Positions 52,815-62,717 of a stretch of 64,000 bases of DNA are shown piece by piece. A program made the translations under genes and the position numbers. Within the stretch, counting starts at the first letter, position 1. The number at the start of each line of letters is the position of its first letter. The notes beneath the pieces are model-generated. The model did no database searches. It was not told the DNA's origin and was given only the letters and a program-made list of their open reading frames with translations. Source of the DNA: Escherichia coli (GTDB lineage Bacteria > Pseudomonadota > Gammaproteobacteria > Enterobacterales > Enterobacteriaceae); assembly GCF_045037415.1 (NCBI RefSeq), contig NZ_CP173438.1; one strand, given 5' to 3'.

Positions 52815-53586
52815 CGGCACCATTGACCTCCAGCGCAACGGTTTCATTGCCACTTTGGTGATTAATCGCCCGGCGAAACTCAACGCATTAACCCCAGAGA
52901 TGCTCGAACAACTGCTGGCGCATTGCCACACGTTGGAAACTGATTCGGAGATCCGCGTAGTACTGCTGACCAGTGCCAGTGAAAAAGCGTTTTGTGTCGG
53001 CGCGGATATTCATCGCTGGACCTCTCTTTCTGCACTCGATATGTGGCGCAACTGGATCCGCCGCGGTCATCAGGCATTTGATGCTCTGGCACAACTGCCA
53101 CAGCCCGTAATCGCCCTGTTGCACGGCCTGGCTTATGGCGGTGGTCTGGAACTGGCTGCTACCGCCGATATCCGTATTTGTAGCGCCGAAGCACAAATGG
53201 CACTACCAGAAACCGGGCTGGCGACAGTGCCTGGCTGGTCAGGAACGCAGCGGCTGACGGCACTGCTTGGGCGCTCACTGGTGAAAGAACTGGTATTTAC
53301 CGGTGAACCACTGGATGCACAGCGGGCACTGTCCTGCGGGCTGGTGAATCGCGTTGTCGCCAGGGAGGCGTTACACGACGCCGGACTGCAACTGGCACAA
53401 CGTATCGCCCAGCGTGCTCCCGTTGCAGTGCAGATCGCCAAGCAGGTTATTGATGCCGGAGAAGGTATTGCTGTGGCCTCGACGCTTGAAGCACTGGCTG
53501 GCGCTTTTTCCGCCACGACTGAAGATGCTCATGAAGGCAGTCAGGCATTTACTGAGAAGCGTCAACCGCACTTTCAGGCACGCTGA
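52807..53586 (+). CDS. Enoyl-CoA hydratase/isomerase (crotonase-fold) family enzyme
   Basis: 259-aa ORF with crotonase patterns (LNALTPEM, oxyanion-hole region FCVGADI, GLAYGGGLELA); 8-bp overlap with upstream gene. Confidence 0.8.
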   Translation: MNNGTIDLQRNGFIATLVINRPAKLNALTPEMLEQLLAHCHTLETDSEIRVVLLTSASEKAFCVGADIHRWTSLSALDMWRNWIRRGHQAFDALAQLPQPVIALLHGLAYGGGLELAATADIRICSAEAQMALPETGLATVPGWSGTQRLTALLGRSLVKELVFTGEPLDAQRALSCGLVNRVVAREALHDAGLQLAQRIAQRAPVAVQIAKQVIDAGEGIAVASTLEALAGAFSATTEDAHEGSQAFTEKRQPHFQAR

Positions 53587-53612
53587 TCGCCTCTTACAAG
53601 GAAAGAAAGATA

Positions 53613-54893
53613 ATGAATATGACAACCTCTGTTCCCCAAACGCCTTCTTTATTTCGGCGAATAATGACAAAACTCGCGGCCTTTGCACCTGGCATCTTTC
53701 TTATTGGCTACAGCATCGGAACAGGCAGCATCACCACTATGGCTAAAGCAGGTGCTAACTATGGTGTCTCGCTCATGTGGGCCGTGGCGCTTTCTTGCAT
53801 TGTTACCTGGTTTTTAATCCGTATTTATGGTCGTTATGCTTCCGTCACTGGTGAACGCGCGTTGACTGCATTTCGTCGCCATATCCATCCCGGCGTTGCG
53901 ATGTTGTTTCTGATCGGGTTAACCGTTGCCGTGAGCGGTTCCATTATGGGGGTAATGGGTATTCTGGCGGATGTAATGGCAACATGGTCCACGACCTGGT
54001 TTAGTGGCGGTATCTCAGCTCTCGCCTGGGCTATCGCGATGGTCATTATGATTAACGTGATGCTCTGGACCAACAGCAACGCCGGGTTCGACAAAATCCT
54101 CTCCGCGCTGGTTGGCATTATGGGGCTGGCGTTTGTGATTAATTTTTTCATTATGATGCCGCCGGTCGCAGATCTGCTGGCCGGATTTATTCCGTCTGTT
54201 CCCGATCCTGTCGCTGGCGATAACAGTACGCCATTTCTGATAATTTCTGGCATGGTGGGTACCACCGTAGCACCAGCAATGTTTCTTATGCGCACGACCC
54301 TGGTAAAAAGTAATGGTTGGGGTGTGGACAATTTGCCTCATCAAAATCGTGATGCCATTGTCAGTGCAGGAATGATGTTCATCATCAGTGCGGCGGTGAT
54401 GGCTGCGGCTGCGGGTACGTTGTACCAAACTGGCACAGGTTTAAATAATGCCTCGCAAATGGTCATTATTCTCGAACCTATTGCTGGCTCAGCTGCCGTG
54501 GGGCTCTTTGTTATTGGTATTGTTGCAGCCGGGCTTTCCAGCCAGTTCCCAAATTTGCTGTTAACGCCCTGGCTGCTGGCTGACTGGCGTGATACCAGCA
54601 ACGAAGTTAGCCCAGGTTACCGTATCCTGATGACGGTTATGTCTCTGCTTTGTCTGGTTGTGCCGCTGTTCCACGCACGCCCGGTATTGGTGATGATTGC
54701 CAGCCAGGCCTTTAACGCCATTATTCTGCCGCTGACTGTTTTATGTATGTTCTGGCTGGCGAACAAGCCTTCGTTAATGGGCAAATATCGTTGCTCACGC
54801 TGGGAAAACGTCATGTTTATTGCCATAAGCGTATTTACGCTAATCATGGGCTATATGGCAATGAGCGGCTTAATCGAAAGTCTGATGAAATAG
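53613..54893 (+). CDS. NRAMP-fold membrane transporter, divergent (canonical metal-binding motif not conserved)
   Basis: 426-aa polytopic ORF whose N-terminal helices align in pattern with MntH, but the DPGN motif position reads IGTGS. Confidence 0.55.
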   Translation: MNMTTSVPQTPSLFRRIMTKLAAFAPGIFLIGYSIGTGSITTMAKAGANYGVSLMWAVALSCIVTWFLIRIYGRYASVTGERALTAFRRHIHPGVAMLFLIGLTVAVSGSIMGVMGILADVMATWSTTWFSGGISALAWAIAMVIMINVMLWTNSNAGFDKILSALVGIMGLAFVINFFIMMPPVADLLAGFIPSVPDPVAGDNSTPFLIISGMVGTTVAPAMFLMRTTLVKSNGWGVDNLPHQNRDAIVSAGMMFIISAAVMAAAAGTLYQTGTGLNNASQMVIILEPIAGSAAVGLFVIGIVAAGLSSQFPNLLLTPWLLADWRDTSNEVSPGYRILMTVMSLLCLVVPLFHARPVLVMIASQAFNAIILPLTVLCMFWLANKPSLMGKYRCSRWENVMFIAISVFTLIMGYMAMSGLIESLMK

Positions 54894-54903
54894 GTGGGAC
54901 GCA

Positions 54904-56940
54904 ATGATTGACGAAACGCTAACGGCGCTCACTGATATCAAAATGCCCCATTACGCACCGCTGGCTCAAGCCAGCGGTAGTATCGACCTTAACGGTACCA
55001 TTTTACCAGAGTACTGCTGCAACACGCTGGTTCTGGGCAGTGGCGCGGCAGGATGGCGAGCTGCCGTCGAGCTGAAACGGCAAAATGTCGATGTAATGGT
55101 CGCCTCCAGCAAAGCCTTCTGGGGCACTTCCGCCTGTTCTGGTTCCGATAAACAAACGCTTCACACCGCGAATACGCGTGCAAATGGTGACCATTTTCTG
55201 ACATTAAGTAACACCCTGGCGGCAGGTGGTGCGATGGATCATGACACCGCATATGTTGAGGCGGTCGGATCGGTGAACACCTGTGAAGTACTGAAATATC
55301 TGGGTCTGGATCTGCCTGAAGATCTCTTTGGCGCAACGTTGCGTTATCAAACCGATCACGATGAATTTGGCCGTGCCACTAGCTGCGGTCCTCGAACATC
55401 GCGCCTGATGGTGAAGGTGCTGGCCCAGGAGGCAATGCGCCTTAATATTCCTCTTTGCGATCACACAACGGCGATTCATATCCTGACCAGTGGTGAAGGG
55501 GAAAATCGACGAGTCGTGGGGGTGATCGCCATCGATAAAGCCTGTCGGGATAATCCCTGGCGAATGGTCGTGATTCGCTGCCAGCATCTGGTTTTAGCCA
55601 CGGGCGGACCAGGTGAACTTTATCGTGACAGTGTTTATCCGGTGAACTGTTTTAGTGCGTTGGGCATGGCACTGGAAGCAGGTATAACTCTGGTTAATCT
55701 TACGGAAAGTCAGTTTGGTATCGGTACACCGCGCAGCCAGTTTCCGTGGAATCTTTCCGGTACTTACATGCAGGCGATGCCGCGCATCTATTCGCAGGAC
55801 CACTCCGGGCGTCAGTATAATTTTCTGGCAGCTTATTACCCCACGACTCGTATGCTGGCCTCCGCAATATTTCGTAAAGGTTACCAGTGGCCGTTTCACG
55901 CGGAACGAATGCTGGAATATGGCTCCAGCCTGCTGGATGTCGCAGTTTATGAAGAGACTCAAAAAGGGCGCGATGTTTTTCTTGATTTTCTACGGGAACC
56001 AGAACCCGCAGCGGACGGAACGTCATTCAACCTGCAAGAACTGGATGATGATGTCATCGACTATCTGCAACAAAATCACGCCCTGTTGGCACAACCGCTG
56101 GCGAGATTAACACAGATGAATCCTCTGGCTATTCGTTTGTATCAGATGCACGGTCATGATCTCACAGCCTCACCGCTCAAGTTTACGCTAAATAATCAAC
56201 ATCTTAATGGCGGAATTGAAGTTGATATTTGGGGACGTACATCGCTAACTGGTTGTTATGCTGCCGGAGAAAATGCCGGAACACATGGTGTCACGCGCCC
56301 AGGTGGAGCAGCGCTCAATGCCGGGCAAGTTTTCGCCCGCCGCTGTGCATTACATATTGCTCATCAGAAAAGCCAGGACCGGCCTCTCGAGAGGCAACAA
56401 ATTCTCAGTACGATTAATGAGGCGCAACAGTACCTGAATCAGGGGCTGCTACGTGACGACGTGCGAGAAACGATACAAAATACCATGAGCCACCATGCCG
56501 CAATTTTGTGTCATACACAGGGGATCAACACTGCCGCGCAAACCCTGGCAACACTTTGTGAAGATATTCGCCGGGAAGGTATTCAATGCGATGAAAACAG
56601 CCTGGCACAATCTTTCCAGTGGCGGCAAAGTGCGCAACTGGCGCTGGCTGTACTGCGTTCTTTACAATGTTATGTCGAAAACGGTGGTGGGAGTCGTGGT
56701 GCCAGGGCTATCTATGATGGCGAAGCCGGTATTGCACCGCAAACACCAGGTGGGCCACTCCTGGCCTGGCGTTTTCGGCCAGAAAATCAGGATGCCAGGC
56801 AATATATGATTTGTGTTTGTCGGGAAGCTAATGATTACCAAACCTGGACTCGCCCGTGCCGTGAACGGGGCGTATTAACGCTAACCAACTTTGAGCGCCA
56901 GTGGCAAAACTGGATTGCGGCGACGCCGTTTCAATACTGA
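54904..56940 (+). CDS. FAD-dependent oxidoreductase, fumarate reductase / succinate dehydrogenase flavoprotein-like
   Basis: N-terminal dinucleotide fold LVLGSGAAGWRAA and C-terminal GCYAAGENAGTHGVTRPGGAALNAG motif typical of the FRD/SDH/aspartate-oxidase flavoprotein family; 678 aa. Confidence 0.7.
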   Translation: MIDETLTALTDIKMPHYAPLAQASGSIDLNGTILPEYCCNTLVLGSGAAGWRAAVELKRQNVDVMVASSKAFWGTSACSGSDKQTLHTANTRANGDHFLTLSNTLAAGGAMDHDTAYVEAVGSVNTCEVLKYLGLDLPEDLFGATLRYQTDHDEFGRATSCGPRTSRLMVKVLAQEAMRLNIPLCDHTTAIHILTSGEGENRRVVGVIAIDKACRDNPWRMVVIRCQHLVLATGGPGELYRDSVYPVNCFSALGMALEAGITLVNLTESQFGIGTPRSQFPWNLSGTYMQAMPRIYSQDHSGRQYNFLAAYYPTTRMLASAIFRKGYQWPFHAERMLEYGSSLLDVAVYEETQKGRDVFLDFLREPEPAADGTSFNLQELDDDVIDYLQQNHALLAQPLARLTQMNPLAIRLYQMHGHDLTASPLKFTLNNQHLNGGIEVDIWGRTSLTGCYAAGENAGTHGVTRPGGAALNAGQVFARRCALHIAHQKSQDRPLERQQILSTINEAQQYLNQGLLRDDVRETIQNTMSHHAAILCHTQGINTAAQTLATLCEDIRREGIQCDENSLAQSFQWRQSAQLALAVLRSLQCYVENGGGSRGARAIYDGEAGIAPQTPGGPLLAWRFRPENQDARQYMICVCREANDYQTWTRPCRERGVLTLTNFERQWQNWIAATPFQY

Positions 56941-57045: not shown

Positions 57046-58029
57046 ATGGCAACGCGCATCGAATTTCACAAGCACGGTGGCCCGGAAGTACTTCAGGCCG
57101 TGGAGTTCACTCCTGCCGATCCGGCGGAGAATGAAATCCAGGTCAAAAATAAAGCCATCGGCATCAATTTTATCGACACGTATATCCGCAGCGGCCTTTA
57201 CCCGCCACCATCGCTACCCAGCGGATTAGGCACCGAAGCGGCAGGCATCGTGAGTAAAGTCGGCAGTGGTGTAAAGCATATTAAGGCAGGCGATCGCGTA
57301 GTCTATGCACAATCGGCATTAGGCGCTTACAGCTCTATGCATAACATTAATGCGGATAAAGCGGCGATTCTGCCTGCGGCAATTTCTTTTGAGCAAGCTG
57401 CGGCATCCTTCCTGAAAGGCTTAACGGTTTATTATCTGCTGCGCAAAACCTATGAAATTAAACCCGATGAACAGTTCCTGTTCCACGCAGCGGCTGGCGG
57501 CGTTGGCTTGATTGCCTGCCAGTGGGCAAAAGCCCTGGGCGCGAAACTTATCGGCACCGTGGGAACCGCGCAAAAAGCGCAGAGTGCGCTAAAAGCGGGC
57601 GCATGGCAGGTTATTAACTATCGTGAAGAGAATCTGGTCGAGCGGTTAAAAGAGATCACCGGTGGCAAGAAAGTGCGCGTGGTGTACGATTCAGTGGGCA
57701 GAGACACCTGGGAACGGTCGCTGGATTGCCTGCAACGCCGCGGCTTAATGGTGAGTTTTGGCAACTCATCAGGTGCGGTTACCGGTGTGAACTTAGGCAT
57801 TCTCAATCAGAAAGGCTCGTTGTATGTGACACGCCCTTCCCTGCAAGGCTATATCACCACGCGGGAGGAATTAACCGAGGCCAGTAATGAACTGTTCTCT
57901 TTGATTGCCAGCGGTGTGATTAAGGTCGATGTCGCCGAGCAGCAGAAATATCCGCTGAAGGATGCGCGGCGTGCGCATGAGATTCTGGAAAGCCGGGCGA
58001 CGCAGGGTTCCAGCCTGTTGATTCCATAA
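57046..58029 (+). CDS. qorA: NADPH:quinone oxidoreductase
   Basis: 327-aa zeta-crystallin-like ORF MATRIEFHKHGGPEVLQAVEFTPADPAENEIQVKNKAIGINFID. Confidence 0.95.
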   Translation: MATRIEFHKHGGPEVLQAVEFTPADPAENEIQVKNKAIGINFIDTYIRSGLYPPPSLPSGLGTEAAGIVSKVGSGVKHIKAGDRVVYAQSALGAYSSMHNINADKAAILPAAISFEQAAASFLKGLTVYYLLRKTYEIKPDEQFLFHAAAGGVGLIACQWAKALGAKLIGTVGTAQKAQSALKAGAWQVINYREENLVERLKEITGGKKVRVVYDSVGRDTWERSLDCLQRRGLMVSFGNSSGAVTGVNLGILNQKGSLYVTRPSLQGYITTREELTEASNELFSLIASGVIKVDVAEQQKYPLKDARRAHEILESRATQGSSLLIP

Positions 58030-58037
58030 AAGAAATT

Positions 58038-58068
58038 GGGCTTCCACCTGGGAAGCCCTTTCTTTTAT
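58038..58068 (+). terminator. Rho-independent terminator of qorA
   Basis: Stem gggcttcc/ggaagccc with 5-nt loop followed by tttcttttat. Confidence 0.65.
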
Positions 58069-58193
58069 AGTTCGGCTGTATGTAGGGTACAGCTCGATGA
58101 ATTTGTTTGACACGCAATAGTGACAGATTTGATTATCAATTCCTATTTTGTTCTAAGGATAAAACCTTAGGTTGTGATCATCCGCACAATCCC

Positions 58194-58436
58194 TTAGTAA
58201 CGCCAGCGGTCATAATGCTGATATTTCGGCACTTTTGGTGCTTTAATCGCCCTGATCACCCACACCACCGCAACCGCCAACAGCAGCCACGGCAGCAACT
58301 TAATCATCAATGCCAGCATACCGCCGAGGAACATAAAGGCCGTCGCCACAATCAGCGCGGCGATAATACCCAGCAACGAAACACCAGTGACCATCAGCAT
58401 GACAAAAAAGCCAATTACAAAAAGTAGTTCCAGCAT
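58194..58436 (-). CDS. pspG: Phage shock protein G
   Basis: 80-aa two-TM protein from MLELLFVIGFFVMLMVTGVSLLGIIAAL; ORF-track version is over-extended upstream. Confidence 0.85.
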   Translation of the reverse strand: MLELLFVIGFFVMLMVTGVSLLGIIAALIVATAFMFLGGMLALMIKLLPWLLLAVAVVWVIRAIKAPKVPKYQHYDRWRY

Positions 58437-58471
58437 GATGCTCTCCCAAATATGAAATCTCTTGCTGGCAT

Positions 58472-58487
58472 TACAAGAATCATGCCA
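58472..58487 (-). promoter_or_regulatory. Sigma-54 promoter of pspG
   Basis: Minus strand reads TGGCAT-GATTC-TTGTA, the same -24/-12 architecture as the pspA promoter, ~36 bp upstream of the pspG start. Confidence 0.55.
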
Positions 58488-58569
58488 AAAATAATCTATT
58501 GATTTAACAGCAAAACGCCCCGCGACGGTGCGCAGGGCGTGGTGAATTTGACTACTTTTTGGTGAAAAG

Positions 58570-59565
58570 TTAACGCTTATCCGCCACCAGTTTGAGCGCG
58601 TGTTCCAGCACATTAATGTCTGCACCCGCTTTATGGGCATTTTCACTTAAATAACGTCGCCACTGCCGCGCGCCAGGAATACCCTGGAACAAGCCCAGCA
58701 TATGCCGGGTAATATGGCCGAGATACGTCCCCTGGCTGAGTTCACGCTCAATGTACGGATACATGGCGCGCACTACCGCCACCGGATCGGCATCGGTATC
58801 CGAGGAACCAAAAATCTCTCGGTCTACCGCCGCCAGAATCCCCGGATTCTGATACGCCTCGCGCCCGACCATCACGCCATCCATATGTTGCAAATGCGCT
58901 TTAGCTTCTTCCAGCGACTTGATACCACCGTTAATCGACATCGTCAGATGCGGAAAGTCACGCTTCAGTTGATACACACGCGGATAATCGAGCGGCGGGA
59001 TCTCACGGTTTTCTTTCGGACTTAACCCAGAAAGCCAGGCTTTACGTGCGTGGATGATGAACATCTCACACTCACCTTTGCCGGAAACGGTGTTGATGAA
59101 ATCGCAGAGAAATTCATAGCTGTCCTGATCATCGATGCCAATACGCGTTTTCACCGTCACCGGAATCGACACCACATCGCGCATCGCTTTCACGCAGTCG
59201 GCAACCAGCTGCGCATTACCCATCAGACACGCACCAAACATGCCGTTCTGCACCCGGTCAGACGGGCAGCCGACATTCAGGTTGATCTCATCATATCCGC
59301 GCGCTTCTGCCAGCTTCGCACACTGTGCCAGCGCCGCCGGATCGCTACCCCCGAGTTGCAACGCTACCGGATGTTCTTCTTCACTGTACGCCAGGTAATC
59401 ACCTTTACCGTGAATAATCGCCCCTGTGGTCACCATTTCGGTATACAGCAACGTATTGCGGGAAAGCAGACGCAGGAAATAACGGCAATGTCTGTCCGTC
59501 CAGTCAAGCATCGGGGCAATCGAGAAACGGTAAGCGGGATAAACAGTGTGTGATTCTGCTGGCAT
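58570..59565 (-). CDS. dusA: tRNA-dihydrouridine synthase A
   Basis: 331-aa TIM-barrel ORF with [19 protein letters not shown] start region. Confidence 0.9.
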
Positions 59566-59720
59566 GGCGACTTTTTAAGCATCTGGTAAATTGGGGGCGC
59601 TACTATAGCATAACGAATATGCGATCAGGCAATGTGACAGCCATGACACCCTGTTCTCGGCGTTTAAGTGAGAACTATGGTAAAGTAAGGACATTCTTAA
59701 CCCCACTGTCGAGGTGCCCA

Positions 59721-60236
59721 ATGGAAAAGACCACAACGCAGGAGTTATTAGCGCAGGCTGAAAAAATCTGCGCACAGCGTAATGTGCGCCTGACCCCACA
59801 GCGTCTCGAAGTGTTGCGCCTGATGAGTCTGCAGGATGGCGCTATCAGCGCTTATGATCTGCTTGATTTGCTGCGCGAAGCTGAACCGCAAGCCAAGCCG
59901 CCAACGGTTTATCGCGCGCTGGAGTTTCTGCTTGAACAAGGTTTTGTGCATAAGGTGGAATCCACCAACAGTTATGTGCTCTGTCATCTGTTCGATCAGC
60001 CCACCCATACTTCAGCCATGTTTATTTGCGATCGCTGCGGCGCGGTGAAAGAAGAATGTGCTGAAGGCGTGGAAGACATCATGCATACGCTGGCGGCAAA
60101 AATGGGTTTTGCCCTGCGGCATAATGTTATTGAAGCACATGGATTATGTTCAGCATGTGTAGAAGTAGAAGCGTGTCGTCATCCTGAACAGTGCCATCAT
60201 GACCACTCTATTCAGGTGAAAAAGAAACCTCGCTAA
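59721..60236 (+). CDS. zur: Zinc uptake regulator (Fur family)
   Basis: 171 aa from MEKTTTQELLAQAEKICAQRNVRLTPQRLEVL with C-terminal Cys/His cluster; ORF-track start lies 57 codons upstream. Confidence 0.93.
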   Translation: MEKTTTQELLAQAEKICAQRNVRLTPQRLEVLRLMSLQDGAISAYDLLDLLREAEPQAKPPTVYRALEFLLEQGFVHKVESTNSYVLCHLFDQPTHTSAMFICDRCGAVKEECAEGVEDIMHTLAAKMGFALRHNVIEAHGLCSACVEVEACRHPEQCHHDHSIQVKKKPR

Positions 60237-60277
60237 AAGGGTGTACATCCTTGTACATGTCGGGCAGGAGGGATTAA

Positions 60278-60487
60278 TTACCAGCGGTAATCATGGCGTT
60301 TTTCCCAACTATCAACCTCTTTTTCTGCCTGATCTTTCTGATAACCGTAGCGTTCCTGGATTTTACCCACTAACTGATCACGTTTTCCTTCAATGATCGT
60401 CATATCATCATCGGTCAGTTTGCCCCATTGCTCTTTCACTTTACCTTTAAACTGTTTCCAGTTACCGCCGGCTTCATCTTTATTCAT
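60278..60487 (-). CDS. yjbJ: CsbD-family stress protein YjbJ
   Basis: 69 aa from MNKDEAGGNWKQFKGKVKEQWGKLTDDD. Confidence 0.85.
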   Translation of the reverse strand: MNKDEAGGNWKQFKGKVKEQWGKLTDDDMTIIEGKRDQLVGKIQERYGYQKDQAEKEVDSWEKRHDYRW

Positions 60488-60602
60488 AATCAAGACCTCA
60501 TCGTTAGGTTGTGAATGAGAGTACGTTCACTTTTCTTCTGAACGTGAGATTAAGTGTAGTCAGCAATTTGGCTTAGGATTATTTATTCAGAATTTTTAAC
60601 CG

Positions 60603-61982
60603 TCACGTTGCGACAAACCAGGTATCGTTACGCCAGTGACGCCGCCAGATAGCCGCCAGAGAAAGCCCGCGTAACGCCAGAAAGACGGTTAACGCCAGCC
60701 ACAAACCATGATTCCCCAGCCACGGCAGCGTAAGGAGCGTCAGTGCAAAACCTGCGGCGGCCACCGCCATACTGTTACGCATTTCGGCGGCACGCGTTGC
60801 GCCTATAAACATGCCGTCCAGCAGATAACACCAGACGCCGACCAACGGCAAAATCACCTGCCAGATAAGATAGCGGTCAGCCAGCTGCTGAATCTGGGTT
60901 AACGACGTCAGCAACGCAATGATGTGTTCCCCTGCCAGCAAATAAACCACCGAAAACAGTAACGCTACGATCCCCGACTGGCGGCACGCTGCCCGCCAGA
61001 CATCCAGCAATTGACTACCGTCGCGCGCACCGTATGCCTGACCGGAATGTGCTTCAACCGCGTAGGCAAAACCATCCAGCGCATAGGCGGTAAAGGTGAG
61101 TAGCGTCATCAGAACCGCGTTAACAGCGATAATGTCACTCCCCAGTCGCGCGCCAAGTACAGTGATCGCGCCGAAACAGAGTTGCAGCAACAGCGAGCGC
61201 AGCATGATATCGCGGTTAAGCGCCAGCAAGTGACGGAAGTTTCCTCGCCAGGCTGTTTTCAGCATTTCGCCGGAGATTCCGCGTAGTTTGAGAATTTTAC
61301 GCACCATTAGCAGACCAATCAGCAATGTTGCATATTCCGCAATAACCGTCGCCAGAGCCGCGCCCTGCACGTTCATATGCAGCCCCATCACCAGCCAGAC
61401 ATCCAGCACAATGTTGAGGATATTGCCGACCACTAACAAAATTACTGGCGCACGGGCATATTGCACGCCGAGTAACCAGCCAAGTAATACCAGATTCGCC
61501 AGCGACGCCGGTGCGCTTAACCAGCGGATTTCAAGAAAGCGTCGCGCCTGTTCCAGGACTGCTTCACTACCACCAACAATATGCAGCGCCAGATCGATAA
61601 TCGGCGTACGCAGCAGCGCAATTAACGCCCCGGCCCCCAACGCCAACAGCAACGGTTGCACCAGCGCACGGGCTAATGCCTGAGGATTTTTGGCACCATA
61701 AGCCTGTGCAGTCAGCCCGGTGGTGCTCATGCGTAAAAACAGCAACAACATAAAGAGAAAGCTGGTCGCCGTTGCACCAACCGCCACGCCGCCTAAATAA
61801 ACCGGACTATCAAGATGACCAATTACCGCCGTATCGACCAGTCCCAGCAACGGAACGGTGATATTGGAGAAAATCATGGGTAAGGCGAGATGCCAGAGTG
61901 CTTTATCAGATGAAGTGAGGAATGCCATGCAGACAAGCCTGATGAAGAGAGATGAAAAACAAACCGCGACGCCAGGCGGCAT
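60603..61982 (-). CDS. dinF: MATE-family efflux protein DinF (SOS-inducible, co-transcribed with lexA)
   Basis: 459-aa polytopic ORF directly downstream of lexA on the same strand. Confidence 0.9.
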   Translation of the reverse strand: MPPGVAVCFSSLFIRLVCMAFLTSSDKALWHLALPMIFSNITVPLLGLVDTAVIGHLDSPVYLGGVAVGATATSFLFMLLLFLRMSTTGLTAQAYGAKNPQALARALVQPLLLALGAGALIALLRTPIIDLALHIVGGSEAVLEQARRFLEIRWLSAPASLANLVLLGWLLGVQYARAPVILLVVGNILNIVLDVWLVMGLHMNVQGAALATVIAEYATLLIGLLMVRKILKLRGISGEMLKTAWRGNFRHLLALNRDIMLRSLLLQLCFGAITVLGARLGSDIIAVNAVLMTLLTFTAYALDGFAYAVEAHSGQAYGARDGSQLLDVWRAACRQSGIVALLFSVVYLLAGEHIIALLTSLTQIQQLADRYLIWQVILPLVGVWCYLLDGMFIGATRAAEMRNSMAVAAAGFALTLLTLPWLGNHGLWLALTVFLALRGLSLAAIWRRHWRNDTWFVAT

Positions 61983-61999
61983 CGCGGTTCAGAGATATG

Positions 62000-62608
62000 T
62001 TACAGCCAGTCGCCGTTGCGAATAACCCCAACCGCCAGCCCCTCAATGGTGAAGCTCTGCTGACGAAGGTCAACGACAATTGGTTTAAACTCGCTGTTTT
62101 CTGGCAACAGTTCGACTTTATTGCCCTGTTTTTTCAGGCGTTTAACGGTAACTTCGTCATCAATACGTGCGACAACGACCTGACCGTTACGTACATCCTG
62201 AGTTTTATGCACTGCCAGCAAATCGCCATCCATAATGCCGATATCTTTCATCGACATCCCGCTGACACGCAGCAGGAAATCAGCATTCGGCTTGAACAAG
62301 GAAGGATCGACCTGATAATGACCTTCAATATGCTGTTGCGCCAGAAGCGGTTCACCGGCAGCCACACGACCTACCAGCGGCAACCCTTCTTCCTCTTCCT
62401 GCAATAAACGAATCCCGCGTGATGCGCCGGAAACAATTTCAATAACGCCTTTGCGTGCCAGCGCCTTCAGATGTTCTTCAGCCGCGTTTGGGGAACGGAA
62501 CCCCAAACGCTGCGCGATTTCCGCACGCGTCGGCGGCATACCTGTCTGGCTGATGTGATCACGGATGAGATCAAACACCTCTTGTTGCCTGGCCGTTAAC
62601 GCTTTCAT
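62000..62608 (-). CDS. lexA: SOS repressor LexA
   Basis: 202-aa [42 protein letters not shown] with Ser-Lys peptidase domain. Confidence 0.98.
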
Positions 62609-62616
62609 TCCGCCCC

Positions 62617-62653
62617 CTGGGTGTATATACAGTTATGCTGTGAGTATATACAG
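62617..62653. promoter_or_regulatory. Two tandem LexA boxes in the lexA promoter
   Basis: CTGGGTGTATATACAG (62617-62632) and CTGTGAGTATATACAG (62638-62653) just upstream of the lexA start. Confidence 0.9.
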
Positions 62654-62717
62654 CAAAAGGCGATTTTGGAACCATAAACTGCACAATAAACCAGAGATTT
62701 ATCGAAATCTGGAAGGG

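Follow-up and report, generated by a model that had tools for sequence, protein, structure and literature searches.

The zur-dusA region of Escherichia coli poses the question of which strains have kept its original arrangement. In the window, by which we mean the whole 64,000-nucleotide stretch of E. coli DNA analyzed here, dusA (58570-59565, minus strand) and zur (59721-60236, plus strand) are divergent and are parted by a spacer of 155 bp (59566-59720, a feature without strand that was defined from sequence and annotation). The dusA coding sequence (CDS), identified from the list of open reading frames (ORFs) and the RefSeq annotation of an identical sequence, begins with ATG and encodes 331 amino acids (aa) with the N-terminus that we call native; full-length DusA matches, including residue 1, were found in Escherichia albertii, Lelliottia, Citrobacter, and Enterobacter. 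The zur CDS encodes a 171-aa member of the FUR family, as indicated by the ORF list, the K-12 annotation, RefSeq, and Pfam, which recognized a FUR domain in the product. The first-pass annotation placed zur directly beside dusA with a 155-bp spacer, and the ORF list, the sequence, and RefSeq all agree: SK1144, whose genome is 100% identical, is annotated with the same two genes at the same distance. The junction is no oddity of assembly, since the contiguous form is present in 1,044 of 5,426 complete E. coli genomes. At ~57 to 64 kb, the window contains qor, pspG, dusA, zur, yjbJ, dinF, lexA, dgkA, and plsB, and the qor-to-plsB genes run in the reverse of the K-12 order.

We compared this junction with the K-12 locus. 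The statement that yjbL and yjbM separate zur from dusA in K-12 was correct: in MG1655 the two genes (b4047 and b4048) occupy the interval, the annotated start codons of zur and dusA are 1,665 bp apart, and there is no direct adjacency. In a blastn comparison, the window and K-12 were collinear over 57046-59519 (96.8% identity) and 59653-62700 (96.6%), leaving 133 bp in the window (59520-59652, no strand) opposite 1,686 bp in K-12 (4260071-4261756). The difference is a replacement and not a simple indel. The break points fall at 59519/59520, within the dusA CDS and ~46 nt past its ATG, and at 59652/59653, 68 bp upstream of the zur ATG. The 133-bp segment without a K-12 counterpart holds the first ~15 codons of native dusA, its 5' untranslated region, the putative promoter region, and the distal part of the spacer, so that the two strains differ both in the 5' end of dusA and in the sequence upstream of it. 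The K-12-specific segment has a G+C content of 34.8%, compared to 51.6% for the window. No DUF2713 gene lies between zur and dusA in the window, nor is there any counterpart of K-12 4260071-4261756. An alignment to K-12, as the first-pass annotation proposed, thus upheld the difference in adjacency; what had been missed is that the difference reaches into the dusA CDS and that it breaks at a phage attachment core, described below.

The distribution of the two forms was determined in the same sample of 5,426 complete E. coli genomes. The native segment, queried as 149 bp (59512-59660), was present in 1,122 genomes, in every case at 99% identity or more; these include CFT073, which has the exact junction, and NRG 857C. 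The K-12-type zur-yjbL-yjbM-dusA arrangement (at least 80% coverage) was found in 4,038 genomes (74%), a count that takes in O157:H7 genomes with a prophage integrated at the same core. In those O157:H7 genomes, a partial "tRNA-dihydrouridine synthase" is annotated under the yjbM-side match, and we take it to be the displaced K-12-type 5' fragment. An mEp460-type integrase lies beside dusA in 726 genomes. In ~78 genomes the native segment is present and not contiguous with dusA, and a ~41-kb prophage separates the two in both of the genomes examined (DETEC-S589 and strain 998); in strain 998 the integrase is at 4.7305 Mb and the native fragment is at 4.7714 Mb.

The DETEC-S589 genome matches the window across the full 64 kb at ~98.5 to 99.7% identity and carries a 41.6-kb lambdoid prophage between dusA and zur, with a tyrosine integrase divergent from dusA. 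The window matches both prophage flanks, and the two matches overlap by 17 bp (59504-59520). Comparison of attB (the window), attL and attR (DETEC-S589), and attP (the free phage mEp460, whose integrase is 98% identical to that of the DETEC-S589 prophage) revealed a common core, TC(A/G)AGCAT. The window sequence is the recombinant join of the DETEC-S589 attL and attR, and it has the core in common with the free-phage attP, which itself consists of the attR left arm, the core, and the attL right arm. In the window, the unoccupied core TCAAGCAT is at 59504-59511 and reads ATGCTTGA on the dusA strand, covering codons M19 and L20 and the first two bases of D21. It is part of a semiconserved region (59504-59530, no strand) in which 19 of 27 positions, counted by hand, are common to attB and mEp460 attP. 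The break between K-12 and the window coincides with this attB core of mEp460-type phages.

The mEp460 integrase is listed among the dusA-associated integrases (DAI) (PMC4482086), and the same study describes imperfect att repeats of 21 to 28 bp for dusA-specific islands and lysogens whose dusA takes its 5' end from the element. In DETEC-S589, the prophage gives dusA a new start, MHDNPEIQKTNQTSVMPEKT... These comparisons suggest a mechanism in which the DAI tyrosine integrases of mEp460-like lambdoid phages, some Stx phages among them, would use an attB at dusA codons 19 to 21; integration would part zur from dusA, provide dusA with a new promoter and a new 5' end, and displace the native 5' fragment to the zur side. 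On these alignments, we interpret the window as an unoccupied attB of DAI integrases, integration itself being seen in the form of natural lysogens. The window dusA would keep its native promoter and first ~18 codons, with zur and dusA diverging from a common 155-bp promoter region. The view that the 5' end of dusA is an integration hot spot is well founded, in E. coli as elsewhere, as both the integrase-bearing genomes and published work (PMC4482086) attest. It was also correctly noted that the window itself holds no integrase or island: the flanks are collinear with K-12 (96.5 to 96.8%), and all of the ORFs are core genes. Specifically, no DAI integrase was found beside or divergent from dusA, upstream of which there is the 155-bp spacer and then zur, and the window has neither an element-borne dusA 5' end nor a displaced native fragment; its DusA N-terminus is the native one, as in the outgroups. 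In the attP region of mEp460, five GGTTCCC-like motifs, which may be arm-type integrase sites, flank the core (L086, ~945-1180); the window has none.

The K-12 dusA start, MHGNSEMQKINQTSAMPEKT..., resembles the prophage-borne version. The first ~90 bp of the K-12-specific segment are 84% identical to the prophage arm (E = 4e-23), and over the 118-nt arm ending at the core K-12 is 78 to 80% identical to three phage arms and 58 to 60% identical to the two native arms, from the window and from E. albertii. We relied on nucleotide identity over the 118-nt arm because the MH(E/Q)N motif alone is not diagnostic: the long MH(E/Q)N-type DusA N-terminus also occurs at integrase-less loci in Yersinia, Providencia, and Photorhabdus, and an MH(E/D)N N-terminus was dropped as a sole marker of the element on account of its presence there. 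In K-12, searches with blastn (word size 7) and tblastx against the whole prophage found no attR or displaced native fragment; there is no integrase at the locus, nor are there recognizable arm-type GGTTCCC sites. The K-12 sequence ATAGCGGGGTACTATACCATA resembles the start of the phage integrase, ATGGCGTACTATAACATA, and lies at a similar distance from dusA; as it overlaps an extended -10 motif and cannot be separated from promoter conservation, we make no claim for a vestigial integrase start.

From the arm comparison, the K-12 locus is probably a decayed, integrase-less relic of a dusA-specific element, which would have lost its integrase, attR, and the displaced native fragment; a low-G+C insert would then stand joined to a phage-type dusA 5' end. 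We consider it likely that dusA of K-12, and of the roughly three quarters of sequenced E. coli that have this form, is a chimera, with a fossil attL arm making up the promoter and the first ~30 annotated codons and with DUF2713 as surviving cargo. K-12 is not listed among the hosts of dusA islands by Farrugia et al. (PMC4482086). An integrase-less dusA in another genus (Enterobacteriaceae metagenome-assembled genome [MAG] CTSoil_132, L028, 5478-6040) has a 5' arm 75% identical to that of K-12 (KHGNSEMTNASQTSVMPVNSDNHW...), and would appear to be another relic of this sort, formed independently; the presence of such an arm in a different genus, with no integrase beside it, fits a mobile origin.

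The K-12 arm could also have been the donor. Imprecise excision from a K-12-type host might have given mEp460-like phages their attP arm, with yjbL and yjbM arriving by an unrelated route. The similarity between the K-12 and phage arms (78 to 84%) has no direction, and MH(E/Q)N-type N-termini at integrase-less loci of other genera would fit such a capture. We nevertheless judge it unlikely. The 5' end of K-12 dusA is unlike the native one and abuts DNA of 34.8% G+C, so it was acquired under either view; in Shimwellia, Rosenbergiella, Pseudocitrobacter, and Photorhabdus, each DAI element comes with both an integrase and a long 5' end of its own, as is documented for the DAI family (PMC4482086); and a K-12-like arm without an integrase, as at L028, is expected of a mobile sequence. 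Whichever way the arm traveled, the verdict on the window would be unchanged.

The reading of K-12 as an element relic leaves yjbL and yjbM to be accounted for. YjbM had no match in 50,697 phage records, and no genome was found with a DUF2713 gene within an integrase-bearing element. DUF2713 is a near-orphan, with 51 matches, mostly fragments, among 1.84 billion representatives. Among the best 120 of 151 YjbM word-index matches, all were DUF2713 proteins, and those with a named source were from E. coli, except for one labeled Klebsiella pneumoniae; a 36%-identical relative is on a short contig without dusA or an integrase. We tentatively infer that yjbL and yjbM arrived as cargo of the decayed dusA element. 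The two K-12 genes are themselves halves of one DUF2713 gene (L001, 3322-4307; K-12, ~4260321-4261306). Most E. coli have this gene intact (327 to 340 aa), whereas in K-12 a frameshift at an A-run (CGTAAAAAAATG) has cut it in two. Its divergence between strains is unusual, with amino acid identity as low as 50% (L089) at one locus whose flanks are conserved.

Which arrangement came first was addressed with outgroups, for which the window DusA was compared to one genome per bacterial species, yielding 80 loci. Two Escherichia outgroups, E. albertii and a separate lineage deposited under the name E. coli SCPM-O-B-8794, have zur ~155 bp from dusA along with the native N-terminus; aligned with the window over the spacer and the starts of both genes, they show no internal gap and a mean identity of 95%. 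The native N-terminus (M-x-x-E-x-x-T-x-[FY]-P-A-[HY]...) recurs in Lelliottia, Enterobacter, Citrobacter, Kluyvera, and Pluralibacter, as does the upstream stretch TATGCTATAGTAGCGCCCC, which is conserved in Escherichia and nearly so in Kluyvera. None of the 80 outgroup loci has a YjbL or YjbM homologue. Several genera do have other genes between zur and dusA, namely, one for a 162-aa protein and, in some, another for a protein of 438 to 452 aa; Lelliottia and Citrobacter have kept the native dusA 5' end, and the MAG locus L028, which also has intervening genes, has a K-12-like dusA 5' end.

The gap-free Escherichia outgroup spacers, the shared N-terminus and TATGCTATAGTAGCGCCCC, and the lack of YjbL and YjbM in the outgroups lead us to regard, from sequence comparison, direct zur-dusA adjacency as the ancestral Escherichia arrangement and that of K-12 as derived. 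The first-pass annotation had treated the junction as an indel of this strain and a sign of a mosaic backbone, a reading that is not supported, since the outgroups place the change in K-12 instead. We hold with high confidence that the window shows an ancestral, never-rearranged arrangement with an unoccupied dusA attB, while zur-yjbL-yjbM-dusA in K-12 is derived, likely as the remnant of an element. There is direct support for the adjacency, its ancestry, the att site, the use of that site in sister strains, and the phage-like 5' end of K-12 dusA.

A site that was never occupied looks the same as one that was occupied and then cleanly vacated, because precise excision would restore exactly the window sequence. 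A past lysogeny at dusA would make this a healed attB and not a virgin one. Precise excision that re-forms wild-type dusA is documented for dusA-specific elements (PMC4482086), and the ~78 genomes with a detached native segment, together with the ~41-kb prophage in both of those examined, are in keeping with it. Such an excision is by definition traceless, however; nothing in the sequence calls for it, and the spacer and dusA 5' end match the outgroups position for position. We regard this history as improbable. That the lineage instead once had yjbL and yjbM and deleted them, making the adjacency a secondary loss on a "mosaic" backbone, draws on the K-12 state being the majority form and is highly implausible, since no deletion could generate the 133 bp missing from K-12, these 133 bp are collinear with E. 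albertii, with the N-terminus and upstream motif found Enterobacteriaceae-wide, the K-12-type locus has no integrase or attR for precise excision, and the native segment is found only in the 1,122 window-type genomes among the 5,426.

Conservation suggests a putative native dusA promoter on the minus strand at 59602-59610, 36 nt before the dusA ATG; it has an extended -10 sequence, TGCTATAGT, with the G+C-rich stretch AGCGCCCCC after it. For zur, the putative promoter is the extended -10 sequence TGGTAAAGT (59678-59686, plus strand), conserved in K-12 and E. albertii and located within the 68 bp common to the window and K-12. Both assignments are inferred from conservation. Upstream of the dusA starts, K-12 has TGGTATAGT and mEp460 has TGTTATAGT, so the element appears to bring a look-alike dusA promoter, in agreement with reports that dusA-targeting elements supply one (PMC4482086; PMC13136901). 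In mEp460, TGTTATAGT is the motif that would drive the phage-supplied dusA. The start region of mEp460 int (ATGGCGTACTATAACA) overlaps this motif on the opposite strand.

Other searches of the spacer were negative. There was no Rfam match in 59300-60000 at a permissive threshold, no Zur box (TGTTATANTATAACA, up to three mismatches) in or near the spacer, the lone match in the window being at chance level, and no -35/-10 pair in a simple scan of 59450-59800. Two terminator-like matches were disregarded, as they lie inside zur on the opposite strand. A scan of 59400-59800 found no inverted repeat in the spacer, and the only repeat in that interval was a 15-nt direct repeat in two copies of 80% identity. 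One copy (59506-59520, AAGCATCGGGGCAAT) overlaps the attB core, and the other (59577-59591, AAGCATCTGGTAAAT) is in the spacer; the repeat is also present in E. albertii and is probably due to chance.

Several observations concern the surrounding DNA and the dusA prophages of related strains. The window from ~49.9 to 57.0 kb, between dnaB and qor, is collinear with DETEC-S589, whose block encodes a LacI-family regulator, a CoA-transferase, an enoyl-CoA hydratase, an MFS transporter, and an FAD-binding protein; dnaB and qor are adjacent in K-12. Window positions 53574-54928 did not align to DETEC-S589. Collinearity with the same genome marks further blocks at ~30.9 to 47.3 kb: an aphA-tyrB block with a sensor kinase, a sigma-54 regulator, and a second 2-oxoglutarate dehydrogenase/succinyl-CoA synthetase cluster, which we presume to be absent from K-12, and a tyrB-alr block with pnuC and an AAA ATPase; in NT1F34, tyrB directly neighbors alr. 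The DETEC-S589 dusA prophage carries genes annotated "scabin-related ADP-ribosyltransferase" and "subtilase family AB5 toxin binding subunit" (L002, 3972-5146). The pair lies downstream of the gene for the Q antiterminator and may be an AB5 toxin moron. The dusA prophage remnant of NT1F34 has, after int and dinI, a SLATT-domain gene and then a reverse-transcriptase-domain gene (L084, 10832-12731), a candidate defense cassette in the moron position.

The zur-dusA adjacency is thus real and ordinary, being the normal state in about one fifth of sequenced E. coli and in E. albertii; dusA, too, is already well described as an integration hot spot. What is mildly new is that the 5' end and promoter of the reference K-12 dusA appear to be a fossil phage arm. 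DusA is annotated at 331 aa in the window and at 345 aa in K-12, a lineage difference that comes from the separate origins of the 5' ends, and K-12 serves poorly as a reference for both the native promoter and the native N-terminus of dusA. If K-12 dusA is indeed a chimera, studies of DusA expression in K-12 describe an element-supplied promoter, and the CFT073/NRG 857C group, which includes the window strain, keeps the original gene and promoter.

Three known systems bear comparison with the window. The K-12 MG1655 zur-yjbL-yjbM-dusA locus has the same flanking genes in the same order, with 96.5 to 96.8% DNA identity on both sides. It differs in having 1,686 bp of 34.8% G+C DNA where the window has 133 bp, in lacking the native dusA promoter region, and in a DusA annotated at 345 aa with a phage-type N-terminus, whereas the 331-aa protein of the window has the native one.

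The dusA-specific islands and prophages with DAI integrases (Farrugia et al. 2015, PMC4482086) have the same target in the 5' end of dusA as the window, and their imperfect att repeats of ~21 to 28 bp agree in size with the window/mEp460 att region. In those islands the 5' end and promoter of dusA are replaced and the native fragment is displaced, and the E. coli integrase seen here, that of mEp460, is among the DAI integrases listed in that study. Unlike them, the window has the chromosomal half alone, an empty attB with no integrase, repeats, or cargo.

Finally, the Stx and lambdoid prophages of Shiga toxin-producing E. coli (STEC) said to be inserted at "yjbM," "dusA," or "zur" occupy the same chromosomal position as the window attB, although the window has no prophage there. 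All three genes are named as Stx-phage insertion sites (PMC8065619; PMC10562709), and phiSTEC1575-Stx2k and 1720a-02 carry the integrase found beside dusA at 99% identity. By our own reading, which is not stated in those papers, the three names appear to denote one att site, called after whichever gene flanks it; in the window, which lacks yjbL and yjbM, that gene would be zur.
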